Part shown: piece by piece, positions 9,787-24,627 of the stretch
How the letters are laid out: every line of letters starts with the position of its first letter
Position numbering within the stretch: position 1 is the first letter of the stretch
NCBI GenBank assembly: GCA_964557415.1
Contig: CAZLBB010000007.1
Span: 9,064 to 73,063, forward strand
Origin: an uncultured Rhodospirillaceae bacterium
GTDB taxonomy: Bacteria; Pseudomonadota; Alphaproteobacteria; JAEULC01
Length of the DNA stretch: 64,000 nt
Reading direction: 5' to 3'
The notes under the pieces: model-generated
Databases searched by the model: none
Told to the model about the DNA's origin: nothing
The model's input: only the letters and a program-made list of their open reading frames with translations
Made by a program: the position numbers and the translations under genes

Positions 9787-9805
9787 CGCGCGTCGACCCG
9801 CGCGC
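9786..9805 (+). terminator. GC-rich hairpin (GCGCGCG-TCGACC-CGCGCGC) immediately after the stop of the preceding gene. There is no U-tract.
   Basis: A 7-bp perfect stem with a 6-nt loop, seen directly in the sequence. Absence of a T-run makes a classic intrinsic terminator uncertain. Confidence 0.35.
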
Positions 9806-9914
9806 CTAGATTCGAGCCGGGGTTCGGCGGCAGACCGAGCCCGAGGCGGCTTGGGGGGACCCGGTCACGCATGGTGGGGTCGGCCGGCGATCAGTTGACG
9901 CAGCGGGAATTTCC

Positions 9915-10475
9915 TTGACCGAAGCGGCCGATCGCAACGGCGGGGGCACGAACGCATATGCCCGATTCCTGGGCTTCTTGAAGAGCAAGGAAATCCGGGA
10001 CCTGCTCGACTATTGGCGCAGGGCGCGGAAGGGCAGGCCGATGCCGTCCAAATCCGACATACGGCCGGAGGAAATTCCGTGGGCGCTGTCGCGGGTGTTT
10101 CTTCTCGACTACGGCCCTGACAGCGGATTTCGCTATCGCCTGGCCGGCGCGGACGTGGCGCGGATGTTTCGTCGATCGAATCTGAAGGGGCTCGGTTTGA
10201 CGGATATCCTGCCGGCGCCCCAGGCCGAGCTGGTAACGCGGCGCTGGATGCCGATCGTCCAGGGACCCTGTGTGCTTCATATGCGGGGCATGGTCTACTT
10301 TGCGGCGGAGCGGGTTCCGCTGGGGGAACGCCTGCTAATGCCCTTGAGCGACGACGAGAGCAGCGCCGTAACAGGAGTCCTCGGCATGACGGTGTTCGAA
10401 TGGGTCAGCGGTCCCGTTGCCGACCAGGCCAAGCTCCCGGAGATCGAGTCGATCCTGGTCGGCGCGATTCCCTGA
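9915..10475 (+). CDS. PAS-like domain protein, alphaproteobacterial PAS_5/DUF1457-type
   Basis: 186 aa, soluble. Has a central region typical of single-domain PAS-fold proteins from alphaproteobacteria. Coding-like GC3 bias. Confidence 0.5.
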   Translation: MTEAADRNGGGTNAYARFLGFLKSKEIRDLLDYWRRARKGRPMPSKSDIRPEEIPWALSRVFLLDYGPDSGFRYRLAGADVARMFRRSNLKGLGLTDILPAPQAELVTRRWMPIVQGPCVLHMRGMVYFAAERVPLGERLLMPLSDDESSAVTGVLGMTVFEWVSGPVADQAKLPEIESILVGAIP

Positions 10476-10605
10476 CTTGCGTCGAACAGTCGCGCAAGGA
10501 GCGCCGAAATGGCTTCCGGGGAGTCCGATCGATCGTCCGCATGAATGCGGCCACCTGACGCGTTCCGCAAACGGATAGCTTGGCGTCGCGTAAGCGCGGC
10601 TTCGA

Positions 10606-10989
10606 TCACCCGGTCGCGCGGCCGAACGCCAGGTGCCATGCCGCGCCCATGACGACGAACAGGGCGCCCGCGGTGGCCGCGGTCCGGGCGAAGCGCCAAT
10701 AGGCCCAGCAGTGCGCGTCGATCACGACCCGTTCGGCCGCGTGGAGCGGCAGGCGCAGGCGCCCACCGACCGCCCGCCAGAGATCGGTGCGGCGGAAATC
10801 GCGCCGCCGGGCGTTGAGCGCGAGGATCGCCATCGTCGCGCCGAGCGCGAGGTTCAGCAACCCGCCCGCGGTCAAGGCGACGAACGGCTCGTCCATGCGC
10901 GTGACGCACAGCAGCATGATCGCCAGGCTGGCGAAGTGGAAATGGCGGCCGATCAGCGCGCCGGCGACCTGTCTGATGTCGAGGTCCAT
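10606..10989 (-). CDS. Small hypothetical membrane protein (3 predicted TM helices)
   Basis: 127 aa running from Met 10989 (MDLDIRQ...). Hydrophobic helices. The upstream part of the ORF-track entry (to 11205) is Arg/Cys-rich and unlikely to be coding. Confidence 0.35.
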   Translation of the reverse strand: MDLDIRQVAGALIGRHFHFASLAIMLLCVTRMDEPFVALTAGGLLNLALGATMAILALNARRRDFRRTDLWRAVGGRLRLPLHAAERVVIDAHCWAYWRFARTAATAGALFVVMGAAWHLAFGRATG

Positions 10990-11155
10990 GGGCTCGGAGC
11001 AAATGCAGGATCGATATCGGGCCGGGCATACTTCGCATGCCGCGGCGCCGGTGAAAAGAGGCCGCGCAGCGGCAGGATGCGCCGGGCGGCGCCGGTCGCT
11101 ATAGTCCCGCCTCCGCCCGCGCGGGCATGCAGACCGAACAGACGTCGAGGAGCGC

Positions 11156-12121
11156 ATGAGCCTGGCCGTTGGCATCCAGATGGACCCGATCGAGTCCGTC
11201 AACATCGACGCGGACTCGACCTTCGTGCTGGCGCTCGAGGCGCAGGCGCGCGGCCATGCGCTGTTCCACTACCATCCGCGCAACCTCAGCCTGCGCCACG
11301 GCCGGCTCTATGCCGAGGCCCGGCCGCTCCAGGTACGGCGCAAGAAGGGCGATCATTGCACCCTGGGCGCGCCCGGGGCGCTCGACCTTGCCACGCTCGA
11401 CATCGTGCTGATGCGCCAGGATCCGCCGTTCGACATGGCCTACATCACCGCCACGCACCTGCTCGAGCACATCCATCCCGACACGCTGGTGGTGAACGAC
11501 CCGGCGCATGTGCGCAACGCGCCGGAGAAGCTGTTCGTCACGCATTTCCCCGAGCTGATGCCGCCGACGCTGATCACCAGCGACCGCGCCGAGGTGCTCG
11601 CGTTCCGCCTGGAGCACAAGGACATCATCGTCAAGCCGCTGTTCGGCAACGGCGGCGCCGGCGTGTTCCACATCGGTCCCGGCGACGAGAACCTGAACGC
11701 CCTGCTCGAGATGTTCACGCAGCTCTACCGCGAACCCATCATCGTGCAGCGCTACATTCCCCAGGTGCGCGAGGGCGACAAGCGCATCATCCTGGTGGAC
11801 GGGCGCGCCGCCGGTGCCGTCAAGCGCGTACCGCCCGCGGGCGAGGCGCGCTCGAACCTGCATGTCGGCGGCCGGGCGGAGAAAGCGGCGCTCAGCGCGC
11901 GTGACCGCGAGATCTGCGAGGCGATCGGCCCGGCGCTCAAGGAGCGCGGCCTGGTGTTCGTCGGCATCGACGTGATCGGCGACTACCTGACCGAGATCAA
12001 CGTGACCTCGCCCACCGGCATCCAGGAGATCAACCGGCTCGACGGCGTCACGATCGAAAAGGAGCTGTGGGACGCCATGGAAGCGCGCTACCACGCGCGG
12101 AACCGCCGGCGGCCGGCGTGA
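11156..12121 (+). CDS. gshB: Glutathione synthetase
   Basis: 321 aa. N-terminal GSH-synthetase domain plus an ATP-grasp domain ([14 protein letters not shown] ... RIILVDG ... [14 protein letters not shown]). Confidence 0.9.
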
Positions 12122-13451
12122 ACGGGTCGTCGAGCCCGAACAGACCCGCCGGCCTGAACACAAGCACGAGCACCAGGATGGCGAACACCGCGGCGTCGCG
12201 GAAATCGCCGCCCAGATAGGCGGCCCAGAGGGACTCGATCAGGCCGATCGCGATTCCGCCGACGAGCGCGCCCGCGTACGAGCCGATGCCGCCCAGCATC
12301 GCCGCCGTCAGCGCCTTGAAGCCGAACAGCACGCCCAGCATCGCGCCGGCCTGCCCGTAGTGCAGCACGATCGCCGCGCCGGCCACCGCGGCCAGCGCGG
12401 CGCCGGCGGCATAGGTCAAGGCCACCACGCGGTTGACGTCGATGCCCAGCATGGCCGCCATCAGCGGGTCCTGGGAAGCGGCGCGATAGGCGCGGCCCTG
12501 CGGCGTCGCGGCCAGCACCCAGCCCTGCGCCAGCGACAAGGCGGACGCCAGCAGCACGATCATGATCTGCGTGTAGGTGAGGGACACGGAAAAGCCGCCC
12601 GCCGCGAACAGCTCGACCTTTCCCGGCAGCAGCGAGGGCATCCAGCGGCTGCGCGCACTCTGGCTCAGGCGCACGAACTCCTGCAGGAAGATCGACAGGC
12701 CCACGGCGGCGATCAGCGGTGCCTGCGTGCCGGCATGGTGCAGACGGCGAAAGATCGCGCGCTCGATGCTCCAGCCGTTGAGCGCCGCCAGCAGCACCAC
12801 CGCCGGCAGCGCCAGGGCCAGCATCGCGGCCAGATTGCCCCAGCCCGCCATCGCCAGCAGCCCATAGGAGATCGCCGTCGTGACCGCGCCGATGGTCAGG
12901 AGCTCGCCATAGGCGAACTGGACGTGGCGCGTGATGCCGTAGACCAGCGTGTATCCGACCGCGACCAGCGCGATGACGCTGCCGACCACCAGCCCGTTCA
13001 GCACCTGCTGGACCAGATAGGCGACATGCAGGCCGAGCGGCCAGGGGCGAAGCGGTTCCGGCTCGTCCAACAGCTCCGGCGGGACCGGGTGGCGCAGCCA
13101 GCGATGCAGCAGGATCAGCTTGACGCGCGACAGCGCCGCGCCGTCCAGCTCGACGCCGACGAGCGAACGGCGGAGCTCCATCCGCGCGCTGCCGGTGAAC
13201 AGACAACGCAGCCGCGCTTCGTTGCGCGTCGACGGGAAGGCGGCGCGGCGCTGGAACCGCACGACCACGCCGCCCAGCGCTTCGGGATCGTGCTCTACCG
13301 CCAGCACCTTGTACGCATCGGCGGGTCCCGCCAGCGCCTCGAGCACGTGCAGGCAGGTCTCCTCGTGCGGCAGGTCGGAGCAGGCGGCGAGCACCATCGC
13401 CACGCCGAGCGCTGCAAGCATTCGCCGAGGCTTCAATGCGGTGAGCGGCAT
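12048..13451 (-). CDS. LivH-family branched-chain-amino-acid ABC permease with a ~150-aa N-terminal exported extension
   Basis: The C-terminal ~310 aa match LivH/BPD_transp_2 permeases (YTLVYGI ... [20 protein letters not shown] ... [20 protein letters not shown]). The N-terminus has a signal/lipoprotein-like start (LAACS). No partner ABC genes are adjacent. The 3-prime end overlaps gshB convergently by 74 bp. Confidence 0.7.
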
Positions 13452-13580
13452 GTCGATGGAATGATCCTGGTTCTCGACACCTTAGCACCGGGCCCCCATC
13501 GGTTCGAAGCGCGCTACCCGGAGGTGTTGGCAGGAAATCGGGCGACGGCGTAGCTTCACGTCTGGCTGTTCGGGGGACGC

Positions 13581-15089
13581 ATGGTTGCGCGGGTTTGGAC
13601 GGTGGCGTTCCAGGGCATCGACGTCCTGGACATCGACGTGCAGGTGCAGGTCGCCTCGGGCATCGTCGGCTTCACCGTGGTGGGCCTGCCCGACAAGGCG
13701 GTGGCGGAGAGCCGCGAGCGCGTGCGCTCGGCCTTCAGCGCCATCGGCCTGGCGCTGCCGGCCAAGCGCATCACCGTCAACCTCTCGCCCGCCGACGTGC
13801 AAAAGGAAGGCTCGCATTTCGACCTGCCGATCGCGCTCGGCCTCCTGGTCGCCATGGGCGTGGTCGATGCCGAGGAGGTACAGGGCTACACGGTGCTGGG
13901 GGAGCTCGCGCTCGACGGCGCGGTGGCACCCGTGGCCGGGGCGCTGCCGGCGGCGATCGGCGCCAGCGCGCAAGGCCGCGGCATCATCTGCCCCGAAGCC
14001 AATGGCGGCGAGGCGGCCTGGGCCGGCGAGATCGAGGTGCTGGCGCCGCCGTCGCTCCTGGCCCTCATCAACCACTTCAAGGGCACGCAGGTCCTGGCGC
14101 GGCCGACGCCGCGCCTCGCCGAGGACGACGGCGCCGTCCCCGACCTCAGCGACATCAAGGGTCAGGAAGCGGCCAAGCGCGCGCTCGAAGTGGCCGCGTC
14201 CGGCGGGCACAACCTGCTGATGATCGGCCCGCCCGGCTCGGGCAAGTCGATGCTGGCGCAGCGCCTGCCCGGGCTGCTTCCGCCGCTCGAGCCGGCCGAA
14301 GCGCTCGAGGTTTCGATGATCCAGTCCGTCGCCGGCCAGCTCCAGGGCGGCCGTATCACGCGAAGGCGCCCGTTCCGCGACCCGCATCATTCGGCCTCGC
14401 TGGTTTCCCTGATCGGCGGCGGGAACCGTGCGCGGCCCGGCGAATGCTCGCTGGCGCATCGCGGTGTGCTGTTCCTCGACGAGCTGCCGGAGTTCCAGCG
14501 CCCCACGCTCGAGGCGCTCCGCCAGCCCATGGAATCCGGCAAGGCCGTGGTCGCGCGCGCCAACCACCACGTCTCCTATCCCGCGCGTTTCCAGCTCGTC
14601 GCCGCGATGAATCCCTGCCGCTGCGGCCATCTCGACGACGCGTCGCTGGCCTGCGGCCGCGCGCCGAAATGCGCGCAGGAGTACCAGGCCCGCATCTCCG
14701 GCCCGCTGTTCGACCGCATCGACCTGCATGTCGACGTGCCGGCGGTCGCGGCCTCCGACCTCTCGCTGCCGCCGCCGGCCGAAGGCTCGGCCGAGGTCGC
14801 CCGGCGCGTCGCCCGCGCGCGCGCCGTGCAGGCCAGGCGCTACGAGGGCTACGGCGTCGCCTGCAACGCCGAGGCCGACGGCACGCTCCTGGAAGAGGTC
14901 GCCGGCCCCGACAAGGACGGCCGCGACCTGCTCAACACCGCCGCCGAGAAGCTGAAGCTTTCCGCGCGCGGCTACCACCGCGTCATGCGCGTCGCGCGCA
15001 CGCTGGCCGATCTCGACGGCGCCTATCGCGTCGGGCGCCTGCACATCGCCGAGGCGCTCTCCTACCGCCGCATCGCGCCGGGAAGGTGA
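13581..15089 (+). CDS. comM: ComM/YifB Mg-chelatase-like AAA+ ATPase
   Basis: 502 aa with an N-terminal Lon-protease-like domain, Walker A (GPPGSGKS), a sensor/Zn-ribbon region (NPCRCGH) and the typical C-terminal helix bundle. Confidence 0.9.
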   Translation: MVARVWTVAFQGIDVLDIDVQVQVASGIVGFTVVGLPDKAVAESRERVRSAFSAIGLALPAKRITVNLSPADVQKEGSHFDLPIALGLLVAMGVVDAEEVQGYTVLGELALDGAVAPVAGALPAAIGASAQGRGIICPEANGGEAAWAGEIEVLAPPSLLALINHFKGTQVLARPTPRLAEDDGAVPDLSDIKGQEAAKRALEVAASGGHNLLMIGPPGSGKSMLAQRLPGLLPPLEPAEALEVSMIQSVAGQLQGGRITRRRPFRDPHHSASLVSLIGGGNRARPGECSLAHRGVLFLDELPEFQRPTLEALRQPMESGKAVVARANHHVSYPARFQLVAAMNPCRCGHLDDASLACGRAPKCAQEYQARISGPLFDRIDLHVDVPAVAASDLSLPPPAEGSAEVARRVARARAVQARRYEGYGVACNAEADGTLLEEVAGPDKDGRDLLNTAAEKLKLSARGYHRVMRVARTLADLDGAYRVGRLHIAEALSYRRIAPGR

Positions 15090-15383
15090 ATGGTGCCGGG
15101 TTTGCGGCGTCGCCGGCGAATGCCGCCGCCGCCGCCCTTGTCTTCGACCGCAATGGCTTTCCGGCCGACGACGCCATTGCCCGGCGAACATGGACGCTGT
15201 GCAGCGTCTTGCCGCGCGGAACCGCCGTCGCGAACGGGGCGAAACGGCCAGCGCGCCGGCTCACGCCGCTCCGCCGTGCTGCGGCGCCACGCGCCCAGGC
15301 GGGGCGGTTCCTTGCGTTGCCGGCATAGACCGTCTAAGTGTTATGTGCAGATCGGCAGGGCGCATTTCGAGGCATTGCCGAGC

Positions 15384-16313
15384 ATGGAGACGCGGGCCCT
15401 CCGCTATTTCCAGGCCGTGGCGGAATTCGGCAGCTACAGCCGCGGGTCGGAATTTCTGCGCATCTCCCAGCCCGCCGTCAGCCGCCAGATCCGCAGGCTC
15501 GAGGAAGAACTGGGCAGTGCGCTGTTCGAGCGCCATGGCCAGGGCGTCAGCCTGACCGAATCAGGCCGCATCCTGCTGGCGCGCAGCCAGACGGTGCTGC
15601 GGCAACTGGAGCAGACGAAGGCCGAGATCCGCACGGGCAAGGCCGGGCCGTCCGGCACGATTTCGTTCGCCGTACCCCCGGCGGCCGGCAATTTCCTGGT
15701 GCCCGAGCTGGTCCGGCGCTTCGGCGCCGAGTATCCCAACGTCTTCCTGCGCATCGTCGCCGGGTTCAGCGGGCATATCCACGAATGGCTGGTGCGCGGC
15801 CAGGTCGACCTGGCTTGCGCGCACGATCCGTTGCCGCAACGCGGCTTCGAGATCACGCCGCTGATCAGCGAGGAAATCTTTCTCGCCGGCAAGCCGGGGA
15901 CGATGCCGCCCCGCCGGACCAACGTGAGCATAGAGGACCTGGCCGACCTGCCGCTGATTCTCCCCAGCCGGCCGAATGCTTCGCGCCGGCTGCTCGACAG
16001 TTGGGTCGCGCAGCATAAGACCTCGCTCCACGTGAAGATCGAGGTCGACGATCACTCCGTGATTCGCGCGCTGGTGCGGCAGGGCGAGGGCTTCACCTTG
16101 CTGACGCGCGCCGCGATCGACGCCGAGCTGTCGCGCGGCGAGGTGCAGGTCCTGCCGTTCCGCCCGCGCGCGACCTGGACGCTGGCGCTGATCACGTCGT
16201 CGGACGCCGCGCGCTCGGACATCGTGACGATCTTGGCGCGCACGGTGCGCAGCGTGGCGCGCGAGCTTACCGCCTCGGGCGCTTGGCCCGGCCGGTCGCT
16301 CGATCAACGCTGA
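15384..16313 (+). CDS. LysR-family transcriptional regulator
   Basis: N-terminal HTH (LRYFQAVAEFGSYSRGSEFLRISQPAVSRQIRRLEEELG) plus a LysR substrate-binding domain. The ORF-track entry 15090..16313 is an upstream over-extension. Confidence 0.85.
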   Translation: METRALRYFQAVAEFGSYSRGSEFLRISQPAVSRQIRRLEEELGSALFERHGQGVSLTESGRILLARSQTVLRQLEQTKAEIRTGKAGPSGTISFAVPPAAGNFLVPELVRRFGAEYPNVFLRIVAGFSGHIHEWLVRGQVDLACAHDPLPQRGFEITPLISEEIFLAGKPGTMPPRRTNVSIEDLADLPLILPSRPNASRRLLDSWVAQHKTSLHVKIEVDDHSVIRALVRQGEGFTLLTRAAIDAELSRGEVQVLPFRPRATWTLALITSSDAARSDIVTILARTVRSVARELTASGAWPGRSLDQR

Positions 16314-16332
16314 CGGCGCACCGCCGCCGCCC

Positions 16333-17544
16333 TCACTCGACGACGATGATATCCCGCGAGTGGCGCGAAATGCGCTCCGCGCCGTTCTCGGTCACCAGAA
16401 CGGTGTCGGTGATGCGCGCGCCCAGGCGCTCCTCGCCGATGAAGATCGGCGGCACGACGGAGAAAACCATGCCGGCCCGCAGCGTGTACCTGCTGCCGCC
16501 GAAGATGTGGATCGGCTCGCCCCAATAGGGCGGAAAACCGGGCGCGACGCCATAGGCCGTGGTGTGGCAGCGATAGCGGTCGAAGCCGGCCTCGGCGATG
16601 ACGCGCTTGGCTGCCTCGTGCGGCACCGTTGCGGCGACGCCGGGGCGCATCGCCGCGATGCAGGCGTCGCCCGCGCGGCGGACGACCTCGTGCAGCTCCA
16701 GCATCCGCGCGACCGGCTTTCCCAGGCAGAACATGCGCCCGATGGTCGCGGTATAGCGCTTGTAGGCGGCGCCGAACTCGACGTTGCCGGCCTCGCCGCG
16801 CCCGAGGCGCCGCGAGGTGGGAGAACCGTGCGAGAAGCCCAGACGGTCGCCGGTCACGAGGTTGATCGCGCTCGCCGGCAGTCCGCCGCCCGCGCTAAGC
16901 ATGGCGTGATAGACCGCGCCGGCGATCTCGAGTTCGCTGCGGCCTTCCGCGATCGACCGGACGCAGGCGTCCATGCCCAGATCGGCGATGCGCCCGGCCT
17001 CGCGAACCAGCGCGATCTCGCGCGCGGACTTCACCATCTTCAGGTCGTGCACCAGGTTGTCCGGTTCGGCTACCAGCGCCGCGCCCAGCATATCCTTGAT
17101 GCGTACGTAGTGCCGGGGGTGCAGGTAGTAGGCGGGAACTTCCATGCCGACGCGCCGGTGGCGCAGACCCAGCGAATCGACCAGCCGGCCGAACGCGGCC
17201 ATCGGGTCATCCGGCTCCCCGCCGCCCCAGATGCGCAGGTCCTCGACCAGCGAATCCTGCAGCATCTCGTTGCGCTCGGCGTCCCGCGTGAGCATCACCA
17301 GGGGCTTCGCATCGGCGGCCACCAGCAGGCACTGGAAGGATTGGAAGCTCTTCGCGTCCGTCCCGATCAGCCAGTGCATCGACACGGGATGGAACACGAG
17401 AAGCCAGTCGAGCTTGGCGTCGGCGATGGCGCGGCGCAGCCGCGCCAGGCGCGCGGCGAATTCCTCCGCCGGAAAGTCATGCTTGGACAATCGGGCTCCC
17501 CCGTGTTCCCCCGGCGCAAAGCCTAGCACGACCGGCGCGCACAA
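16333..17544 (-). CDS. M24-family metallopeptidase (Xaa-Pro dipeptidase/creatinase-like)
   Basis: Creatinase-N-like N-terminal domain plus the pita-bread M24 catalytic domain (HGSPTSRRLGRGEAGNVEFGAAYKRYTATIGRM ... ERISR). The likely true start is the TTG at 17490, preceded by GGGGGAG (spacer 5). Confidence 0.8.
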   Translation of the reverse strand: MCAPVVLGFAPGEHGGARLSKHDFPAEEFAARLARLRRAIADAKLDWLLVFHPVSMHWLIGTDAKSFQSFQCLLVAADAKPLVMLTRDAERNEMLQDSLVEDLRIWGGGEPDDPMAAFGRLVDSLGLRHRRVGMEVPAYYLHPRHYVRIKDMLGAALVAEPDNLVHDLKMVKSAREIALVREAGRIADLGMDACVRSIAEGRSELEIAGAVYHAMLSAGGGLPASAINLVTGDRLGFSHGSPTSRRLGRGEAGNVEFGAAYKRYTATIGRMFCLGKPVARMLELHEVVRRAGDACIAAMRPGVAATVPHEAAKRVIAEAGFDRYRCHTTAYGVAPGFPPYWGEPIHIFGGSRYTLRAGMVFSVVPPIFIGEERLGARITDTVLVTENGAERISRHSRDIIVVE

Positions 17545-17661
17545 CGACGGCCCGACGAACGGGATTGCGCTGCCGAAGCGCCGCGTGAGAGCGGGAAAAA
17601 AAGAAAGGCGACGTTCTCCGGCGGACCGCGCCGCCGGAGAACGTCGCGCGCGATTCGTGCG

Positions 17662-19119
17662 CTATTCAGCGGCTTTCATCTGCGATTTGCCGCGCTTGGC
17701 CTGCAGCGCCCGCAATTCCTGCGCCAGGCGCAGTCCGCGCGGAGTGCCGCCTTCCTCGAAGAAGCGGATGATCTTGTCGGCATAGACGCCGGTGCGCGCC
17801 TCCTCGACGGCCGGGATCATCTCCGTGCGCAGCTTGTCGTAGGCCCACAGATCCGACCGCGACAGGTTGATGCGGATCGCGGTGCCTGCGCCGACGTCGC
17901 CCAGTCCGTCGCCGGCATAGAGCGCCACCTTCCGCTTGAACAGCGCCACGCAGATTTCCTGCGCCGTTGCCCCCGTCTTGGAAATGTCGAGGACCATGGA
18001 GAACCCGTACTTCGGCATCACCGGGATGGTCACTTCGCATCCCTTGGAGCGCCACATCTTTTCCGATTCGACCACGTGGGCGAGGTTGCGCCGCATGGCC
18101 GCCTCGGCCGATTGCAGGTACTCCTTGTCCTTGAGCGCGGCGATCGCCCCGTACTGGGCCAGCAGGTTGGTGTGGATCTTGGTGATCTCCATTTTCATCA
18201 TCGCCGCCGCCTTGAGCAGGTCGGGATGGCCGGCGAGGAAGCCCAGGCGCAGCGCCGCCATGCCGTAGCCCTTCGACATGCCGGAGGTGGAGATCACGTT
18301 CGACGTGTCGATCTCCTTGTGCAGCGCGGCGATCGGATACTGGCGCGTCTTCGGATCGAGCTGGTGGGTGTTGTGGGTGATGTTGTTGAAGACGAGGAGA
18401 TTGTGGTCGTTGGCGAGCTTCACGATCTCGAGCAGCTCTTGCTTGCTCTGCGTCGTCCCGTACGGGTTGATGGGATCGCAGATCACGATCATCTTCGTGC
18501 GCAGGTTGATGTGCTTCCTGATCTCCTCGGGCTTCAGCCGGTAGTCGTTCTGGGGCCCGAGGGGGATCTGGACCGGAGTCGCCCCCGCCATCAGCGCCGC
18601 CGGCGCGAAGTGGAAGTATACCGGATCCGGCATGATCACCTCGTCACCCGGATCGAGATAGGTGAGGTAGGTATAGCCGATGCCGCCCTGGGCGCCTTCG
18701 ACGCCGATGACCTCGAAATCGTCGCCGCGTTCCCGGCCGAACTTGGTGACCGCTGCCAGGTCGCGCAGTTCGGAGAGCAGGTCGGGCGGATAGGGGCCGA
18801 CATTCTCGGCCACGCAGCGCCGCTTCATTTCCTCGATCGCGCTCGCCGGCGGGCCGATGTAGGAGCACATCCACCCGAGATCCGACCATTCGGCGGGATC
18901 GAGGTCGATGCGGCCGCCCTTGTAGACCGCGGTGTGGTCCCAGCCGAGCACGTCGATCGCCTCGCGGTAGGTGAAGTAGTTGCCCATCCCCTGCGGGTGA
19001 TAGAACAGCGGCTTTGCCCGGTGCGAGATGTGCCGCTGCATCTTCAGGCTGATGAGCTTGCCGTCGGTCTGGTAGGTACGCCCCCACGACATGATGAAGC
19101 GCGGTTTTGCCTTGGCCAT
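17662..19119 (-). CDS. PLP-dependent aminotransferase, class I/II fold, with an unusual ~110-aa N-terminal extension
   Basis: Aminotransferase fold motifs (IMPDPVYFHF ... PINPYGT ... STSGMSKGYGMAALRLGF). The start ATG at 19119 is preceded by GGAGG (spacer 7). Slightly lower GC3 than its neighbours. Confidence 0.75.
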   Translation of the reverse strand: MAKAKPRFIMSWGRTYQTDGKLISLKMQRHISHRAKPLFYHPQGMGNYFTYREAIDVLGWDHTAVYKGGRIDLDPAEWSDLGWMCSYIGPPASAIEEMKRRCVAENVGPYPPDLLSELRDLAAVTKFGRERGDDFEVIGVEGAQGGIGYTYLTYLDPGDEVIMPDPVYFHFAPAALMAGATPVQIPLGPQNDYRLKPEEIRKHINLRTKMIVICDPINPYGTTQSKQELLEIVKLANDHNLLVFNNITHNTHQLDPKTRQYPIAALHKEIDTSNVISTSGMSKGYGMAALRLGFLAGHPDLLKAAAMMKMEITKIHTNLLAQYGAIAALKDKEYLQSAEAAMRRNLAHVVESEKMWRSKGCEVTIPVMPKYGFSMVLDISKTGATAQEICVALFKRKVALYAGDGLGDVGAGTAIRINLSRSDLWAYDKLRTEMIPAVEEARTGVYADKIIRFFEEGGTPRGLRLAQELRALQAKRGKSQMKAAE

Positions 19120-19343
19120 TTGCTGACCTCCATGGACGGTGGTGTTGCTGGGCGGGACCGGGCGGAGCCTCGCAAGCGAGATTCGCGCCGCCTCTTTTCC
19201 TGCCCAATGCGCGAACGGTAGGAACGCGTTCAACCGCAGTCCAATGCATAATGCTGTATGATCTTTATGCCGCATCGGCATGGCGGGATCCTGCGGGCAT
19301 CGCATTCGGCGCAGCTGCGGGAAGGTTCCCGCCCGCGAGCGGC

Positions 19344-19439
19344 CTGTTGAACAAGGCGGCGGAGAAGCTTGAGCTCAGCGCGCGCGGCGATCACCGGGTG
19401 ATGCGCATGGCTTGCGCGACGGCCTGTCTCGCCGGCGCC
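19344..19439 (+). pseudogene. Internal fragment (~32 codons) homologous to the comM 3-prime region. It is truncated at both ends.
   Basis: Seen directly in the sequence. 19344-19439 aligns codon-for-codon to comM 14930-15025: LLNKAAEKLELSARGDHRVMRMACATACLAGA versus LLNTAAEKLKLSARGYHRVMRVARTLADLDGA. Many of the differences are synonymous. Confidence 0.6.
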
Positions 19440-19461
19440 CCCGCTTGCCGGCGCGGGCGAA

Positions 19462-19566
19462 CGCGTTGTGCATGAAGTGGGTGCGGCAGCGCCGCCAGGA
19501 CGCATGCAGCACCTTGGTCACAGCCGCATTCAGCTCCTCATGCGCGTCCGAGACGACCAGCTTCAT
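19462..19566 (-). mobile_element. Relic of an IS256-family (Mutator-type) transposase gene, a ~35-aa internal piece
   Basis: The translation KLVVSDAHEELNAAVTKVLHASWRRCRTHFMHNA matches the conserved IS256 transposase block (V[IV]SDAHEGLK ... WQRCxVHFxRN). Only about 105 bp remain and no inverted repeats were recognised. Confidence 0.5.
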
Positions 19567-19623
19567 GCAAGCAGGCGCTGTCGCGGCGGCGGCAAACGGC
19601 GGACCGGAAGGGCCGGCGCTGGC

Positions 19624-20910
19624 TCATTGCGGCGCGCGATACGCGGCCCGGCACAGGCGCACGGGCTGGCTGCGCCCGCGCACGGGCTGCGGCGGCAGCT
19701 CGATCCATTCCACGCCGGGCAGCTCCCCGGCCGCGTCGGCGGCCTCGCGCGAGACCAGCAGGTCCACGTCGTTCTCGCGCGTCAGCCGCTCGATTCGCTC
19801 GGCGGTGTTCACCGTGTCGCCGATGACGGTGTACTCCAGCCGCCGCGGGTGGCCGATCACGCCGGCCATGACCTGGCCGTAATGGATACCGATGCCGATG
19901 CCGATCGGCTCATCGCCGCGGGCGGCGCGCTCGCGGTTCCATTGCTCGATCTCGTGGAGCAGGCCGAACGCGGCGAGAATCGCCATGCGGGCGTCGTTGG
20001 CGCCGGTGGGAGGCGCGCCGAACACCGCCATCACGGAATCGCCCATGAACTTGTCCAGCGTGCCGCGGCGTTCGAAGACGGCGTGGGCGCAGCGCGACCG
20101 GAACTCGTTGAGGAACGCCGCGACCGCCTCCGGCTCCTTGCGCTCGGACATGGCGGTGAAGCCGCGGATGTCGGCGAACAGGACGGCCGCCGTCAGGCGC
20201 TGCGGCCGCTCGATCGCCGCCGCCCCTTCGTAGCTCAGCGACGCGACGAGGTTGGGCGGCAGGAAGGGGGCGAGGTTCGCGCGCATGCGGCTGACGACGA
20301 TGTTCGACAGGCGCAACTGGTGCTTGCGCGCGACCACGAAGGCGAGCGCCGCGGCCGTGAGCGCGACGATCGCCATGCGTACCGCGACGCCGTGCGCCGG
20401 GCCGTGCAGCGGCCCGCCGCTCAGCTCGCCCGCGGCCAGATCTTCCGGCTGCAGCCAATCAAGCATGGCGAAGACCGCAAACCAGCCGCCGATGAAAAGC
20501 CCCGCCGTGTAGACGACCAGCCCGGGGTGGTAGCGGATCGCGGCATGGGCCAGGAACAGGAAGATCAGCCCGGCGATCGGCAGCGCGAGCGTCTCGGTGA
20601 ACGGAACGTGCCCCGCCTGCGCGATCATGGTCAGCAGCGTGAGGAGCAGCAGCACGTCGCATGTCGCCAGCGCCCAGGCCACCCAGACGGGGGGGATATC
20701 GATCCGGCCGCGGCGCGTGACCCAGAAATCGGCCGCGGTCACGATGCCGTAGCCGACCAGGATCGGAATGCCGTGGTGCGCCGGCCCGTGGTGCTGCACG
20801 CTGAGCAGGACGACCGCCAGCCCGAGGAAGCTGAGCAGCCGGATGGTCGCCGAGGCGCGCTCGCTGCGGCGTTCCGATTCCAGGATCACGCGGCGGATAT
20901 GGGTCCTCAT
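19624..20910 (-). CDS. Membrane-anchored class III adenylate/guanylate cyclase
   Basis: N-terminal multi-TM region plus a C-terminal CYC domain (LFADIRGFTAMSE ... FMGDSVMAVFGAP ... IGIGIHYGQVMAGVIG ... GDTVNTAERIE). Start chosen at Met 20910 (MRTHIRR); the ORF-track start at 21036 is an alternative. Confidence 0.8.
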   Translation of the reverse strand: MRTHIRRVILESERRSERASATIRLLSFLGLAVVLLSVQHHGPAHHGIPILVGYGIVTAADFWVTRRGRIDIPPVWVAWALATCDVLLLLTLLTMIAQAGHVPFTETLALPIAGLIFLFLAHAAIRYHPGLVVYTAGLFIGGWFAVFAMLDWLQPEDLAAGELSGGPLHGPAHGVAVRMAIVALTAAALAFVVARKHQLRLSNIVVSRMRANLAPFLPPNLVASLSYEGAAAIERPQRLTAAVLFADIRGFTAMSERKEPEAVAAFLNEFRSRCAHAVFERRGTLDKFMGDSVMAVFGAPPTGANDARMAILAAFGLLHEIEQWNRERAARGDEPIGIGIGIHYGQVMAGVIGHPRRLEYTVIGDTVNTAERIERLTRENDVDLLVSREAADAAGELPGVEWIELPPQPVRGRSQPVRLCRAAYRAPQ

Positions 20911-21120
20911 CCCGGCCCCCGCGGAGCCAGCCGCGCCCCGGCCTTCGCCCGACAGCCCCCGACTTGCCCGCTGGTCATGCAATCGCCTCCCCGCCGACTG
21001 AGCGTATTCGTACGGCGCGCGGTCATCCAGAACCAAGTGCCTCGGGGCCCGATCATAGGGTTGGAAATCTTCAATTGATCCAAATCATTGCCGAATTCGC
21101 CACGGATGAGATGATATGTG

Positions 21121-21378
21121 ATGCTCGAGGCGAACCCTTGGCGCGAAAAGGCGCTGAAACTGCTGGTCGTTGCCGAGACGAATTCGGACCCGGAAGAGCG
21201 CCTTCACTATCAGCTTGCCGCGGTCGCCCTGATGGACCTCGCAGAGAACGCCGAGAATCCTCAAGCGGCCGTGTGCACGGATTGCGGCTCGCCCCATGCA
21301 TGCCCGATGGGCTGCGCAGGCGCAGAAATGTCGGCGGCTCTCGGGATCGCTGGTGCAGTGGTCGGCTGCATCTCGTAG
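21121..21378 (+). CDS. Small hypothetical protein (85 aa) with a Cys-rich C-terminal segment
   Basis: GC3-biased codon usage. Sits downstream of an AT-rich promoter-like stretch at 21061-21117. No family recognised. Confidence 0.3.
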   Translation: MLEANPWREKALKLLVVAETNSDPEERLHYQLAAVALMDLAENAENPQAAVCTDCGSPHACPMGCAGAEMSAALGIAGAVVGCIS

Positions 21379-21465
21379 CTCCGACCTGGCTGCAGCCGAT
21401 TTGGTGCTGCGAGATGCCTGGCTGACCGAGGCCCGGGACAGGCTGCCCGGGCGTGGAGGTCGCCG

Positions 21466-21894
21466 ATGACGACAATCGGACAGCTGCTCGATCGCAAGGG
21501 CCACGACGCTTACGCCATCGCGAAGGGATCGACGGTGTTCGACGCCATCAGGACGATGGCGGACCATGACGTGGGCTCGTTGCTGGTCATGGACGGCGAC
21601 AAACTCATCGGCATCGTCACCGAGCGGCAATACGCGCGGAATGTCTTTCTGAAGGGGAAATCTTCGCCGACGACGCGCGTCGAAGAGATCATGCGGACAC
21701 CGGTGCTCGTCGCACGGCCCGATCAGTCAGTGGAAGAAGCTATGGCGGTGATGACCAAAGGACGCGTTCGCCACCTTCCGGTTCTCGATGGCGAGAAGAT
21801 CGTCGGCGTCGTTTCGATCGGCGACCTGGTGAGCAGCAAGATCGCCGACCAGGAATTCGTCATCGACCAGCTCGAGCACTACATCCGGAGCTAG
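21466..21894 (+). CDS. CBS-pair domain protein
   Basis: 142 aa with two tandem CBS motifs (VGSLLVMDGDKLIGIVTERQ ... RVRHLPVLDGEKIVGVVSIGDLV). Confidence 0.85.
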   Translation: MTTIGQLLDRKGHDAYAIAKGSTVFDAIRTMADHDVGSLLVMDGDKLIGIVTERQYARNVFLKGKSSPTTRVEEIMRTPVLVARPDQSVEEAMAVMTKGRVRHLPVLDGEKIVGVVSIGDLVSSKIADQEFVIDQLEHYIRS

Positions 21895-21947
21895 CGCGGC
21901 AGACTCTCAGCGCCGGCCACCTGTGCGGCGGCGCCGTGCGGCGGCCG

Positions 21948-22538
21948 CTATTTTGCCACGACCTGCTTCCACGCCGCTTCCCAGTCCTTCGGCAGCTTGT
22001 GTGCGATTCCCTGGTGGCAGTCGATGCAGGTCATTCCCTTCTCGCGCGCTTCGGCGTGCCTGCGCTGCGCCGGGCGCACCTGCTTTTCCTTGTCCATGAA
22101 CTCGAAAGCGTGGCAGTTGCGGCATTCGCGCGAGTCGGTCGACCTCATTGCCGTCCACACGGACTTGGCCAGCTCGGTACGGGCTGTCTCGAACTTCTCG
22201 GGCGTGCCCACGGTGCCGACGATCTTGTGGTACAGCTCGTTCGTGGCGCGAACCTTGCGCACCACCTTGTGGACCCATTCCTTCGGCACGTGACAGTCGG
22301 AGCAGACGGCGCGCACGCCGGTGCGATTGCTGAAATGCGGCGTGGTCTTTATTTCGGCGTACACGTTGTCGCGCATCTCGTGGCACGAGATGCAGAAGGC
22401 TTCGGTGTTCGACAGCTCCATCGCCCAGTTGAAGCCGCCCCAGAACACGATGCCGGCGGCGAACGACGCCAGCACGAATCCGGCCAGCAGCCATCCGCCG
22501 CGCGGTGCGCCCAGCCATTTGCAAATGCGCTTGAACAT
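21948..22538 (-). CDS. NapC/NirT/CymA-family membrane-anchored tetrahaem cytochrome c (quinol dehydrogenase)
   Basis: N-terminal TM helix plus four CxxCH motifs (CISCH, CSDCH, CRNCH, CIDCH) in the characteristic NapC/NirT spacing. Confidence 0.85.
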   Translation of the reverse strand: MFKRICKWLGAPRGGWLLAGFVLASFAAGIVFWGGFNWAMELSNTEAFCISCHEMRDNVYAEIKTTPHFSNRTGVRAVCSDCHVPKEWVHKVVRKVRATNELYHKIVGTVGTPEKFETARTELAKSVWTAMRSTDSRECRNCHAFEFMDKEKQVRPAQRRHAEAREKGMTCIDCHQGIAHKLPKDWEAAWKQVVAK

Positions 22539-22661
22539 GCTGCCGGTTCCTTTTCTGGGATGTTCGCCTGCCGGACCAGATCCCCGGCAATCGAATCATC
22601 GCGGCGATGTTGATGGCGCCCGGCCGAGTGTCTAATCGGCCGGGCGCCGGCGAGGGAGGGG

Positions 22662-23981
22662 CTAGTTGAGGGTCACCGCCTTGATAGTGGCGTCCGCGCC
22701 GATCCCGAGGCTCAACGGGAACGAGACGAAATGGTAGCGCGTGGTGACGTTGTCGTCGTGCACCGCGATGCCGATCGTGTACACGCCGCCAACCTTCATG
22801 ATCTTGTCGTCCGCCGGATTGCCGGTATCCAGCTTGCGCCGCCACAACAGCGTGTAGGCGCCGTCCTTCCACATTCCCTTCGCGTAGTCGTTGTCGGCGG
22901 CCGATCCCTTGGCGTCGGCGCGGCTGATCAGGCGGCCGGGAAGGATGTCGCCCTCCTTCCACCCCGCGTTCGGGTCGAAGGGCGCGGCGTTCTCCTCGCG
23001 CACGACCGCCGCCGGCTTGGCGGCGTTGCCGATGTCCTCGGCGCGCAACGCCTTGAAGCCCGTCTTGGCGGAATCGAACATGTATTTCGGCAGTTTGGTC
23101 TTGCCGTCGATGTTGGAAGCGAACGGATTGGCGCCGGCATCGAACAAACGGAATTCCAGCACGTAGCCGTCGTCGGCCATGCCGACGGGGTTGCTGCGCG
23201 CGGTCCGCCACTGCATGAGGTCGAGGAACTGGCCGGCGGCCTTCAGCTTGGCGATCTCCTCGGCCGATTTCGGCTTGTCCCAGCTCGCCTCCGGATCCGA
23301 GCGCGTGATGGCGAGATACTTGAGGACCTCGTCCTTCTTCATGCCGGCGTCGCCCAGGAAGGGATGCTTCTTGACGGCATCCTTGCCCGCCATCTTCGGC
23401 GCGTCGCGCATGCCGTTGTGGCAGGTCAGCCAGCAGCCCTGCTGGGCGAAGCGCTCGACCTTGCCGTCGTCGAGCATGATCGCGACGCGGTCCTCGTAGA
23501 GCGGTGGCTCGGCACCCGAGCGCACCTTCTCGTGAGAGCGATAGCTGCCGTACGACTTCCACTCCTTGCCGTCGAAGCGCACGTAGTCGTGCATGCGCCC
23601 CTCGCGGTTCATCTGGGATTTCCACTGCATGCGGAAATAGACGAACTCCTTGTCGTGCGCCGCCTGCACCGACAGCGGGAGCGTGCCGTTCTTGCCGGCG
23701 ATCGGCGTCGGCTCCAGCGGGCCGCCCTTCACCAGCTTGTTGCCGATGTCCGCCTCGTCGCCCTCGTGACAGGACAGACACGCCTTGCCTTGCGCGACCT
23801 GCTTGTCGCCCTTCTTGTGGTCGGGGCTCAGCAGCCAGTCATAGGTCGATTGTCCGGGGTAGAACAGCGTGATCGACTTGGCGGGGATCTTCGACCAGTC
23901 GATGGTCGCCGGATCGGCGGCCAGCGCGGGCCCACCCATCAGCGCAACGGCGCCCAAGAGAGCAGCCGTTTTGTTCCTCAT
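22662..23981 (-). CDS. Periplasmic dihaem c-type cytochrome of unassigned family (439 aa)
   Basis: Sec signal peptide (AVALMGGPALAADP). Exactly two CxxCH motifs (CLSCH near residue 68, CWLTCH near residue 193) and no other Cys. Sits 123 bp upstream of the NapC/NirT gene on the same strand. Confidence 0.7.
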   Translation of the reverse strand: MRNKTAALLGAVALMGGPALAADPATIDWSKIPAKSITLFYPGQSTYDWLLSPDHKKGDKQVAQGKACLSCHEGDEADIGNKLVKGGPLEPTPIAGKNGTLPLSVQAAHDKEFVYFRMQWKSQMNREGRMHDYVRFDGKEWKSYGSYRSHEKVRSGAEPPLYEDRVAIMLDDGKVERFAQQGCWLTCHNGMRDAPKMAGKDAVKKHPFLGDAGMKKDEVLKYLAITRSDPEASWDKPKSAEEIAKLKAAGQFLDLMQWRTARSNPVGMADDGYVLEFRLFDAGANPFASNIDGKTKLPKYMFDSAKTGFKALRAEDIGNAAKPAAVVREENAAPFDPNAGWKEGDILPGRLISRADAKGSAADNDYAKGMWKDGAYTLLWRRKLDTGNPADDKIMKVGGVYTIGIAVHDDNVTTRYHFVSFPLSLGIGADATIKAVTLN

Positions 23982-24627
23982 GGACCTCTCCTCTCAGTGC
24001 CAATGCCCGCGGCGCCGGCGCCATGCGATGTCGCCATTCGCCTTGCCGAGGGTCGAGGACGCCCGCACGGCCGAGAGCCGCTTCGGGTCGCGAACGAATT
24101 GATCGGTGCTCGAGCGAGAAGACTTGACGCGATGCCGAAGGCTGTCTCGCCGCGTTCGAGGAAATTGCGGTGCCGGGATGTTTGCTTGGATACCAGTAAC
24201 GGCAGCAAGTGCGATTGATCATGCCGCCGGACAGCCCCGTCTAGCCTCTGCGTCGGAGGTGGAGCTGTTCCAGTGAAGCCCGCAAACAGCCACATGTCTG
24301 CAACCGGTGGCCAAGCCCGGAAGGGCGCAAGGTTGCTTGCGTCACGCATCAAGCCTGCGAAGGGTGATCGTATCGCACTCGATCGCAGGCAGTTCCCGAG
24401 TTGGCTCCGTCCCTCGTCCGCTGGTTTTCACAAAAGTCGGGCTATGTTCGTTTGCTGGCGGGATTGCCGCATTGACATAGATCATGTCCAGCGGTCTTCG
24501 CGGCGCGATTTGGCTAGTTTCGACAGGGGACGCCGGTCGAGCGGTCTGTGCCAAGCGCGTCGCGGTGTGCTGTCATCGACGCGTTGTCCGCCTGGCGGAT
24601 CGTGCTTGGGCGATGGCGTCCTTCGGG

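Follow-up and report, generated by a model that had tools for sequence, protein, structure and literature searches.

On balance, the 4.4-kb B-type segment of three genes that lies behind comM in the window (W, the whole 64,000-nucleotide stretch analysed) seems to have been inserted there by recombination in the end of the gene, and a truncated second comM end at its far border (comM′) appears to be the scar of that event. Most likely, the event represents ordinary genome plasticity and not a new mobile element.

The backbone of W, which stems from an uncultured Rhodospirillales-like alphaproteobacterium, was classed as A-type according to its closest relatives, the L166 lineage, represented by two MAGs and six contigs (Logan) with comM 93% identical to W at the nucleotide level. 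The B-type group is the sister subclade, in which L186 and L161 carry the islet genes and L001 and L187 served as further B-type comM parents. Nucleotide identity of comM was 92.9% between W and L166, 83–86% between W and L186, L001 or L187, and 88–89% among the B-types; the comparative comM set comprised 178 loci. The features of the region are as follows.

13581–15089, plus strand: comM/yifB, intact, 502 aa, YifB-family Mg-chelatase-like AAA ATPase (Pfam ChlI, Mg_chelatase and Mg_chelatase_C)
14923–15023, plus strand: repeat copy 1, comM codons 448–481, native A-type allele (89/96 to L166 over codons 450–481)
15012–15026, plus strand: putative crossover zone, comM codon 481/482, at the end of the 18-nt A/B-identical tract CTGGCCGACCTCGACGGC
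15024–15089, plus strand: last 21 codons and stop of comM, of B-type and apparently imported character (5/5 diagnostic sites B)
15090–15371, plus strand: comM–lysR spacer, aligned from about 15190 with the L186 spacer (global alignment, W 15081–15310 versus L186 4785–4890)
15372–16313, plus strand: LysR-family regulator, islet gene 1 (Pfam HTH_1 and LysR_substrate; 88% nt, colinear with L186/L161)
16333–17544, minus strand: M24 creatinase/prolidase-fold hydrolase, islet gene 2 (Pfam Creatinase_N and Peptidase_M24)
17662–19119, minus strand: class I/II PLP-dependent aminotransferase, 485 aa, islet gene 3 (Pfam Aminotran_1_2)
19120–19286: upstream region of the aminotransferase gene and end of the B-type colinearity (blastn ends at 19283 for L161 and 19286 for L186)
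19287–19338: 52 nt with no match in the relatives; the closure joint of a circularised segment would lie here or at 19338/19339
19339–19439, plus strand: repeat copy 2, comM′ (codons 448–481), B-type allele, cut off at codon 481 (7/7 diagnostic sites B)
19444–19566, minus strand: IS256-family transposase gene, internal relic of 41 codons (Pfam Transposase_mut, NCBIfam transpos_IS256)
19567–19579: 13 nt ahead of the resumed A-type backbone (L166 colinearity restarts at 19580)
19624–21036, minus strand: adenylate/guanylate cyclase, with which the native A-type block downstream begins (Pfam Guanylate_cyc)

The repeat search joined 14923–15023 and 19339–19439 into a direct repeat of 101 nt (family D1, 74% identity, spacing 4416). 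In the best ungapped register, 14928–15023 (comM codons 450–481) against 19344–19439, 71/96 nt (74%) and 23/32 aa were identical; the 32 aligned codons fell into 14 identical, nine synonymously and nine non-synonymously different ones, with a longest exact run of 10 nt. The first-pass annotation had claimed a second copy of the comM 3′ end at 19344–19439. The copy is real and all the synonymous pairs listed for it were found, but the comM coordinates given (14930–15025) were 2 nt off and the identity is 74%, not 63%. The similarity, for which shuffled controls had been proposed, proved significant: in 200 dinucleotide-preserving shuffles of the whole window the matches averaged 48.5 (sd 1.4) and reached at most 53 of 96 against the 71 observed, the top 96-mer match elsewhere in the window was 51/96, blastn of the repeat within the window gave E = 2.8e-13 (next match 2e-3), and tblastn gave E = 1e-6. 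Short GC-rich matches are common in this genome of about 70% G+C (many blastn matches with E > 1e-3), but chance or low-complexity matching as the source of the repeat is ruled out by the shuffle control, and the in-frame, codon-for-codon match and the separate 87.5–89.7% matches to comM of other lineages likewise speak against it.

The two copies differ in allele type. The near one belongs to an intact comM (NCBIfam TIGR00368, 531 bits, cut-off 362), which agrees with L166 at 283/300 and 89/96 positions upstream and then at only 51/63 in the last 21 codons, where agreement with the B-types is 55–57/63. At sites that consistently separate A from B, W showed 22 A to 6 B states in the 401 nt before the breakpoint and 0 A to 5 B after it. 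The breakpoint was placed by the max-chi-square method at 15021–15026 or 15022/15023 with L166 and either L001, L187 or L186 as parents (permutation P of 0.0005–0.0008, 0.0002 and 0.03, respectively), and 15021–15026 was the single best breakpoint across the entire comM, a signal that leans on few sites, five to nine informative ones 3′ of it. Sequence comparison showed the A-type and B-type alleles to be identical over the tract CTGGCCGACCTCGACGGC. Judged by these sites, the intact gene is A-type up to codon 481 and its final 21 codons, of B-type, look imported.

The far copy spans 34 of 502 codons and is therefore a gene fragment with YifB/ComM homology; because it is so short, the Pfam Mg_chelatase_C score of its ORF (E = 3.6e-5, 24.7 bits) remained just below the gathering score of 26. 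It is non-functional and promoterless, and most likely a scar. Its identity reached 87.5% to L186 comM (72 nt) and 89.7% to L001 (68 nt) compared with 74% to W's own comM, and its first 68 nt matched the B-types at 59–61 positions and the A-types at 51–52. The last 28 nt are far more diverged (13/28 mismatches to L001 versus 7/68 in the first 68 nt; Fisher P = 2e-4). The suggestion that the fragment diverged while still coding and stems from another lineage is supported by its B-type state at 7/7 sites. Of the two origins offered earlier for the comM ends, a foreign end is borne out by the fragment and by the B-like final codons, but displacement of the native end is not: the proposed check of which copy is native identified the near-side copy, codons 450–481 of the intact gene, as native (89/96 to L166) and the far-side copy as foreign. 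Nor is comM interrupted; the gene is intact with 502 aa and the insert follows its stop codon.

Comparison with the closest relatives revealed the empty site. Reversed, L166 runs colinear with window positions 4332–15090 (89–91% nt) and 19580–30688 (86–87.5%), and in place of 15091–19579 it carries a 58-nt spacer, so that the comM stop is followed by 58 nt and then the cyclase. The W cyclase is 88% identical (aa) to P0121, which lies 100 nt from comM in L166, L178 and L179, and comM and cyclase are also adjacent in the second MAG (L179). Among the six short A-type contigs, four have an opposite-strand gene fragment 100 nt past comM, as the cyclase is placed in L178 and L179; the other two end too soon to show the gene after comM. 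The segment is thus inserted relative to the L166 lineage, as the first-pass annotation had it.

In L186 and L161, comM, LysR, M24 and aminotransferase genes are contiguous and colinear with window 15291–19286 at 88% nt, the blastn colinearity after comM starting at 15291 (L186) and 15296 (L161). In both, the comM′ fragment and the IS256 relic are absent and a PAS histidine kinase comes next. Relatives with the three genes and no fragment, which the earlier reading took as a sign against an insertion, do exist, but as L186 and L161 belong to the sister subclade, they mark the donor-type arrangement and do not refute the insertion. No counterpart in any relative compared was found for about 100 nt directly 3′ of the comM stop (15090–15189), and 19287–19338 matched neither L186, L161 and L166 nor comM. 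Nearly every lineage differs in the stretch from comM to the macro-domain gene; in the L001 lineage an IS110-type gene lies 137 nt after comM, and behind comM, relatives with 83–93% comM nt identity carry at least seven different sets of genes. This shows that the comM 3′ end is the left border of a hypervariable region.

The gene content between the copies was as described before, and family matches in 15090–19579 comprised only LysR, M24, aminotransferase and the 41-codon IS256 relic. GC3 of the islet genes was 0.885–0.895, and both GC3 and the synonymous-codon score fell inside the range of the window's other genes, so the proposed codon-usage check brought out no compositional anomaly, as expected for a closely related donor. 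An integrase, recombinase or transposition module was absent from the islet and from the scanned window parts (ORFs from 11 kb onwards, among them those of 19.6–30 and 30–64 kb); window 4.3–15 kb is colinear with L166, and only core-type genes were called in that L166 stretch. The repeat search found no terminal repeats at the islet boundaries. At the right junction, the transposase piece reported beside the fragment is real (Transposase_mut E = 2.6e-7, profile 227–270/379; transpos_IS256 E = 9e-7, 188–230/338). It is a relic and not an element: a complete DDE transposase (about 340–400 aa) and ends are missing, and the repeat search around 19440–19580 returned neither terminal inverted repeats nor a target duplication.

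We propose that a contiguous 4416-bp piece of B-type chromosome, reaching from comM codon ~448 to about 170–220 nt upstream of the aminotransferase start, entered the cell and circularised, and that a single (Campbell-type) crossover then joined it, through its comM 3′ segment, to the comM of the recipient. The exchange, of RecA type rather than site-specific as we infer, would have occurred at codon 481/482, the end of the longest tract of A/B allele identity. Its outcome would be a hybrid intact comM, the three-gene cassette and, at the far end, a second comM piece (B-type codons 448–481) that begins where the incoming DNA began. The expected native continuation of that copy, 124 nt (codons 482–502, the stop and the 58-nt spacer), would later have been replaced by 140 nt with the IS256 relic, which would also have taken away most of the direct repeat able to excise the cassette.

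The reciprocal mosaic and the repeat spacing of 4416 nt fit a circularised B-type segment and one crossover in the comM 3′ end. The direct duplication flanks the insert, the first copy switches from recipient to donor type, and the insert is a contiguous donor segment, permuted: a circular permutation turns the contiguous gene order of the B-types into that of W. In the second copy the donor-type part is present; the recipient-type part (codons 482–502 and the 58-nt spacer) is absent and the IS256 relic stands there. Suicide plasmids and, according to a report on E. coli (PMC3240628), incoming linear DNA circularised by ligation integrate in this manner, the latter by a recA-dependent single crossover. 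Such Campbell-type integration shares with W the homologous segment duplicated directly on both sides of the insert, a first copy that is recipient and then donor, a second copy whose start marks the end of the incoming homology, the exact empty site in relatives and the lack of an element-encoded recombinase. W differs in that its event happened naturally, among sister lineages of uncultured bacteria, with only about 160 nt of homology at about 85%, with the IS256 relic in place of the recipient half of the second copy and with a circularisation that is presumed. With the fragment, the hybrid gene end, the exact empty site and the donor-type arrangement at hand, the course of events can be retraced nearly to the base, which makes W an unusually legible natural case of a few chromosomal genes moving between sister lineages without mobile-element machinery.

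Several observations fit the proposed insertion less well. Since the IS256 relic occupies the place of native codons 482–502, the mosaic lacks its reciprocal half, and the model has to assume two or more additional deletions. The fragment ends (codon 481) within about 10 nt of the crossover, which was not predicted and as a chance coincidence would be rather improbable. The model does not account for the marked divergence of the fragment's last 28 nt, the ~100 nt after the comM stop match nothing, and the short homology of about 85% would serve RecA poorly as a substrate. With only 88% identity between the islet and the sampled B-types, the true donor lies outside the sampling. The insertion may also be older, predating the W/L166 split, with excision in L166.

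Site-specific integration, which comes close to the first-pass reading, is an unlikely source of the same structure, though the least unlikely of the alternatives. Here the comM 3′ end around codons 471–482 (RVARTLADLDG) would be the attB of a tyrosine- or serine-recombinase element, whose attP with a comM-like 3′ end repaired the gene and whose integrase was lost or acted in trans. In three further loci of the 178 (L037, L116 and L148) an intact comM is followed, after a small foreign insert, by another copy of its 3′ end; codons 477–481 are common to all four repeats, and in L116 the copies share a 33-nt identical run at codons 471–481 with diverged flanks. The W crossover at 481/482 and the coding-type divergence kept by both copies point the same way. 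However, besides the integrase missing from the islet and the scanned parts of W, none was evident by eye among the listed ORFs between the repeats of L037 and L116; the repeats start at codons 448, 463, 475 and 477, unlike a fixed att core; and the W copies share no identical run above 10 nt. As codons 471–481 are the best-conserved nucleotides of the region, homologous crossovers would cluster there too. The lone viral-contig match was an unrelated low-GC host flank. Tyrosine-recombinase islands at the 3′ ends of tRNA or protein genes likewise show 3′-end direct repeats bracketing the insert, an intact gene and an empty site, but W lacks the identical att core, a displaced native end and a compositional signature, and its scanned parts yielded no integrase; its cargo is the ordinary chromosomal context after comM in the sister subclade (L186/L161).

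Quite improbable is a one-sided import of linear DNA, homologous in comM and illegitimate downstream, from a B-type donor that already possessed comM′ and the IS256 relic. The left crossover in comM is supported, donor-side homology is lacking at the right junction 19579/19580, the L001 lineage exemplifies that ISs settle behind comM in B-types, and homology-facilitated illegitimate recombination is documented in several bacteria (PMC3240628; the model is discussed in PMC5361080). In such recombination, too, a conserved gene end anchors non-homologous DNA without mobile-element machinery, but the foreign end is joined to recipient DNA and a leftover gene piece should be recipient-type; the far-end piece of W is donor-type (7/7 sites), which points to the two ends of the donor fragment having been joined together. 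Moreover, L186 and L161, the two sampled cassette-bearing B-types, lack fragment and relic, and the import merely shifts the fragment's origin to another genome and leaves unexplained why the fragment end and the comM type switch share a codon.

It is hardly to be expected that both subclades inherited the cassette from their common ancestor, that the L166 lineage lost it by deletion and that the fragment is an unrelated comM piece brought with IS256. The W–B identities (88% in the islet, 84–86% in comM) are by themselves compatible with vertical descent, and the comM to macro-domain region varies in almost all lineages. Such descent, though, accounts neither for the change to B-type in comM's final 21 codons nor for a direct-orientation comM piece exactly at the B-like/A-like boundary, and the relic, internal and without ends, cannot show transduction of flanking DNA.

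Duplicated comM ends like that of W recur in other Alphaproteobacteria. Only as a long shot would we regard the RVARTLADLDG-coding site (codons ~471–482) as a dedicated, reused insertion site for small integrase-less cassettes, with the recombinase supplied from another place in the genome; this reading extends to Rhodospirillales-like Alphaproteobacteria (4/178 loci, W, L037, L116 and L148) and, if true, would mean an undescribed cassette-capture system instead of sporadic homologous recombination.

The analogy with comM as an integration hotspot, drawn earlier, turned out to be inapplicable. AbaR islands of Acinetobacter baumannii are Tn7-like transposons with their own transposition machinery that interrupt comM (PMC11441513, PMC11014353). 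W shares with them a comM/yifB family gene adjoining acquired DNA, but its comM is intact, the insert follows the stop codon, and tns/tni genes and terminal repeats are lacking. In the C-terminal displacement of rhs, CDI and T6SS effector–immunity genes (PMC5361080), a new 3′ end with downstream genes also comes to lie beside a conserved 5′ part, and an extra (orphan) 3′ fragment is left downstream in direct orientation; there, however, what is displaced downstream is the former native end, and the variable 3′ end shows functional polymorphism, while the W fragment is foreign and the comM end conserved. Such fragments should be annotated as scars and taken as evidence neither of an integrative element nor of comM inactivation.

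As to the cargo, the nearest named family of the islet M24 hydrolase is ectoine hydrolase, the DoeA-like NCBIfam scores (159/142 bits) lying below the cut-offs (575/613), and the aminotransferase is 95% identical (aa) to P0001, encoded on L161. Together, the islet genes probably encode two catabolic enzymes for a nitrogenous compound under LysR control. Upstream of the aminotransferase gene, a palindrome, ATGCCGCATCGGCAT, is present at 19267–19281, and L161 has the same palindrome.

The match between the 3' end of comM and a second copy lying further downstream (the fragment) was far above chance. Comparison of comM nucleotides 14928-15023 (codons 450-481) with 19344-19439 revealed 71 of 96 identical nucleotides (74%) and 23 of 32 identical residues, with 14 identical, nine synonymous, and nine non-synonymous codons in the 32-codon alignment. 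The best match to this 96-mer elsewhere in the window reached only 51, and after dinucleotide shuffling of the window (200 rounds) the best matches averaged 48.5 ± 1.4 and never exceeded 53. The second copy described in the first-pass annotation was thus upheld, also against shuffled controls, after a shift of the comM side by 2 nt; in the register proposed originally (14930-15025), merely 30 of 96 positions agree. A repeat search of the window extended the pair to 14923-15023 and 19339-19439 (101 nt, 74%, spacing 4416), with an in-window blastn E value of 2.8e-13 in comparison to 2e-3 for the runner-up match. Between the copies lie the genes for a regulator of the LysR family, a hydrolase of the M24 creatinase/prolidase fold, and a class I/II aminotransferase, and beside the fragment lies the IS256-type relic, just as had been described. 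The product of comM scored 531 bits against NCBIfam TIGR00368 (cut-off 362). The framing features are as follows:

13581-15089, forward strand: comM, encoding a 502-aa YifB-family Mg-chelatase-like AAA ATPase (Pfam ChlI, Mg_chelatase, Mg_chelatase_C)
19444-19566, reverse strand: relic of an IS256-family transposase, 41 internal codons, beginning 4 nt past the fragment

ComM scans of genomes and metagenomes yielded relatives of up to 92% amino acid identity, in which the upstream synteny (gshB, the branched-chain permease gene, comM) was kept and everything after the comM stop codon differed. L166 (NCBI GCA_026647135.1), a locus of the lineage closest to the window, was found through homologues of the cyclase gene on the right-hand side of the fragment. 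When reversed, L166 was colinear with window positions 4332-15090 (89-91% nucleotide identity) and 19580-30688 (86-87.5%), with just 58 nt separating the comM stop codon from the point matching 19580. The comM-cyclase adjacency was also seen in a second MAG (L179); among six short contigs, four carried an opposite-strand gene fragment 100 nt past comM, positioned like the cyclase of L178/L179, the remaining two being too short past comM to judge. Since L166 has an empty site between colinear flanks, the stretch 15091-19579 is a 4489-nt insertion relative to the closest relatives, comprising three genes, the comM fragment, and the IS256 relic.

Searches with the aminotransferase and ComM led to two further loci, L161 and L186 (NCBI GCA_020851015.1), respectively. 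In both, comM is followed without interruption by the LysR, M24, and aminotransferase genes; the stretch aligns colinearly with window 15291-19286 (88% nucleotide identity), a PAS histidine kinase gene comes next, and neither the comM fragment nor the IS relic is present. The same three genes thus occur without the fragment in L186/L161, which show the donor-type arrangement of the sister subclade, and the islet is absent from L166. A simply native islet, as suggested by L161 alone, was overturned by the L166 empty site. No further similarity to the window was detected in L174 and L177, contigs of the L001 lineage reaching beyond comM.

Over the whole comM, the window showed 92.9% nucleotide identity to L166 (A-type) and 83-86% to L186, L001, and L187 (B-type, a sister subclade), the latter three being mutually 88-89% identical. 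The cassette-bearing L186 and L161 belong on the B-type side, L161 being placed there from 99 nt of comM and 89.8% identity to L186 over 5.6 kb only, and the window backbone is A-type on both sides of the islet. Codons 450-481 of the intact gene matched L166 at 89 of 96 positions, whereas the fragment matched L166 at only 70 of 96. BLASTN of the fragment against the related comM genes showed that it matches the B-type (89.7% over 68 nt with L001 and 87.5% over 72 nt with L186). Seven repeat sites split the A-types (the window, L166, L179) from the B-types (L186, L001, L187), and the fragment had the B state at all seven. Together with the L166-like codons 450-481, this marks the fragment, as judged from its sequence, as the foreign copy and not a displaced native end, and the copy in the intact gene as native. 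Of the two origins put forward in the first-pass annotation, a comM end from another lineage was borne out, and a native end displaced by an element was not. Under the latter, with the intact 3' end supplied by an element and the fragment native, the identity to L001 and L002 should drop at codon 450; no such drop was seen, and codons 450-481 are L166-like. The fragment is also nearer to comM of other lineages than a decayed duplicate of the window's own gene would be.

Foreign comM sequence did not seem to be confined to the fragment. A maximum chi-square scan of the whole comM alignment, with L166 and one B-type as parents, placed the single best breakpoint at 15021-15026 (codon 481/482), with permutation P of 0.0005-0.0008 for L001, 0.0002 for L187, and 0.03 for L186. 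On its left side, the window shared the L166 state at 179 of 211 informative sites; on its right side, where such sites are few, it shared the L001 state at seven of nine. Counting only the consistent A/B sites, the 401 nt preceding 15024 held 22 A and 6 B states in the window, and all 5 sites beyond that position were B. Identity to L166 fell from 283/300 and 89/96 upstream to 51/63 in the last 21 codons, where identity to the B-types reached 55-57/63. An 18-nt tract, CTGGCCGACCTCGACGGC, in which L166 and L186 do not differ, ends at the breakpoint, which makes this the likeliest place for homologous exchange.

The window thus reads in the order A-type comM codons 1-481, B-type codons 482-502, the B-type spacer, LysR, M24, and aminotransferase genes with the aminotransferase upstream region, 52 nt, B-type comM codons 448-481, the IS256 relic, and the A-type downstream block. 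Taken together, the B-type parts correspond to a single contiguous B-type segment in circularly permuted order; it runs from about codon 448 of comM to the aminotransferase upstream region, and its length equals the repeat spacing, 4416 nt. Such an order and length are expected of a Campbell-type insertion, in which a circular copy of the B-type segment would have undergone a single recombination with the resident comM at codon 481/482. The rest of the second copy would later have been replaced through insertion and decay of an IS256 element, with loss of most of the direct repeat. This model expects the fragment to be followed by 124 nt, made up of the native comM end (codons 482-502 with the stop) and the 58-nt spacer; 140 nt with the IS256 relic are seen instead. 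In E. coli, incoming linear DNA has been documented to circularise and integrate by a recA-dependent single crossover (PMC3240628). The fragment is thus most likely a remnant of donor DNA from one such crossover, in what would be a clear yet ordinary case of gene gain by recombination between sister lineages. The 4.4 kb unit may conceivably be linked to the headful size of gene transfer agents.

Several observations fit the single crossover less well. The fragment ends (codon 481) within ~10 nt of the crossover, a coincidence not called for by the model. The 3'-terminal 28 nt of the fragment (19412-19439) were far more diverged, with 13 mismatches to L001 versus 7 in the first 68 nt (Fisher P = 2e-4), and residues most conserved in ComM are changed non-conservatively there (R to C, D to C). 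About 100 nt after the comM stop codon (15090-15189) are without a counterpart in A- or B-type relatives, the B-type spacer homology starting from ~15190. The islet shares only 88% identity with the B-types sampled, so the true donor is not among them. The same arrangement would result from an insertion older than the split of the window and L166 and a subsequent excision in L166. Had the import been one-sided, with an illegitimate join, a recipient-type piece should remain at the far end; the fragment found there is donor-type. Models based on IS256 (an IS at codon 481/482 in the donor or recipient, a composite transposon, an aberrant IS circle) offered no simplification, given that the relic consists of an internal part of the transposase directly next to the fragment.

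The machinery of a mobile element was sought in vain. Neither integrase nor transposition genes were detected in the islet or the rest of the scanned window, which, together with the donor type of the fragment, speaks against an integrative element displacing the native comM end; of that proposal, the insertion itself, evident from the empty site in L166, and the presence of a foreign comM end were retained. The boundaries showed no target-site duplication and no terminal inverted repeats, only GC-rich chance matches besides the comM repeat. No Rfam match was obtained across 13-31 kb (E up to 0.1), and neither tRNA genes nor Rfam families were found near the islet. ARAGORN reported an 88-nt tRNA-Arg(GCG) at 33017-33104 (reverse strand) inside an SBP_bac_5 ORF (32968-34821), probably a false positive. 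GC3 of the islet genes was 0.885-0.895 and their synonymous-codon scores lay inside the range of the window's other genes, so the suggested compositional check disclosed no deviation. The proposed analogy with the comM integration hotspot did not hold either: AbaR-type islands are Tn7-like transposons interrupting comM (PMC11441513, PMC11014353), whereas in the window comM is intact and the insert sits past its stop codon. A scan of viral contigs for comM 3' ends returned one match only, an unrelated low-GC host flank. This low-GC viral/prophage contig (L189, 722-1345; IMG/VR UViG_3300029541_000124, ~18.3-19.0 kb) ends with a 5'-truncated comM (last 207 aa) followed by a gene that looks dprA-like, and may represent a prophage inserted within comM of an unrelated bacterium.

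Duplicated comM ends recur. The scan for a second comM covered 188 loci, 178 of them with a comM match, and besides the window three of the 178 had an extra 3' end downstream of an intact comM (81-85% identity); no relative of these three loci was closer than ~81%:

L037, 11429-11528 and 12688-12785: codon 477 to stop, 85%, spacing 1259; low-GC 316-aa ORF between
L116, 11387-11555 and 12071-12239: codon 463 to 22 nt past stop, 82%, spacing 684; 159-aa ORF between
L148, 2420-2517 and 2640-2737: codon 475 to end, 81%, spacing 220; ~120 nt between copies

None of the ORFs between copies, judged by eye from the ORF listing, was integrase-like; the 159-aa ORF of L116 looks GYD-domain-like. The copies in L116 share a 33-nt identical run at codons 471-481. 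The repeat starts vary by codon and codons 477-481 are common to all repeats, an overlap that homologous exchange in the best-conserved stretch would be expected to give. The pattern would also fit a site-specific system acting in trans, which seems improbable.

The region after comM is hypervariable. Comparison of window 15090-29737 with the loci L002, L081, L083, L166, L186, and L187 showed that at least seven different gene sets follow comM in relatives sharing 83-93% comM nucleotide identity, with a macro-domain gene as the common right border wherever visible:

cyclase block
LysR-M24-aminotransferase
IS110-type gene
rhomboid-NfeD-TerC
TerC and histidine kinase
8-kb set in L081
non-coding DNA in L083

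The IS110-type gene occurs in the B-type L001 lineage:

L174 11649-12371 and L177 2610-3332: IS110-family transposase gene (Pfam Transposase_20), 137 nt past the comM stop codon

Several contigs of this lineage stop right past comM, as expected with a repeated element. Elsewhere, window 9786-10616 holds ~830 nt with a 186-aa PAS_5-domain ORF (9915-10475) in place of ~9 nt in L166, and 9125-9430 and 24066-24628 aligned to L166 poorly or not at all.

All three islet genes are intact, with lengths matching those in L186. Ectoine hydrolases are the nearest family for the hydrolase, and GntC-like and class I aminotransferases for the PLP enzyme, with scores far below the family cut-offs in both cases; a more distant relative has the hydrolase and aminotransferase genes alongside those for an NMT1-type ABC transporter and a DAO-type oxidase. 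The cargo would most likely serve LysR-controlled catabolism of a nitrogenous small molecule. A perfect palindrome, ATGCCGCATCGGCAT, at 19267-19281 upstream of the aminotransferase gene is kept in L161, lies at the very end of the B-type-colinear stretch, and may be a regulator binding site. Further along the window, a chromate-resistance-type cluster at 39918-44289 encodes ChrB, a SOD/rhodanese fusion, ChrB_C, and a ChrA transporter, and a second ChrA-type transporter gene was found 16 kb from it, at 60294-61559.
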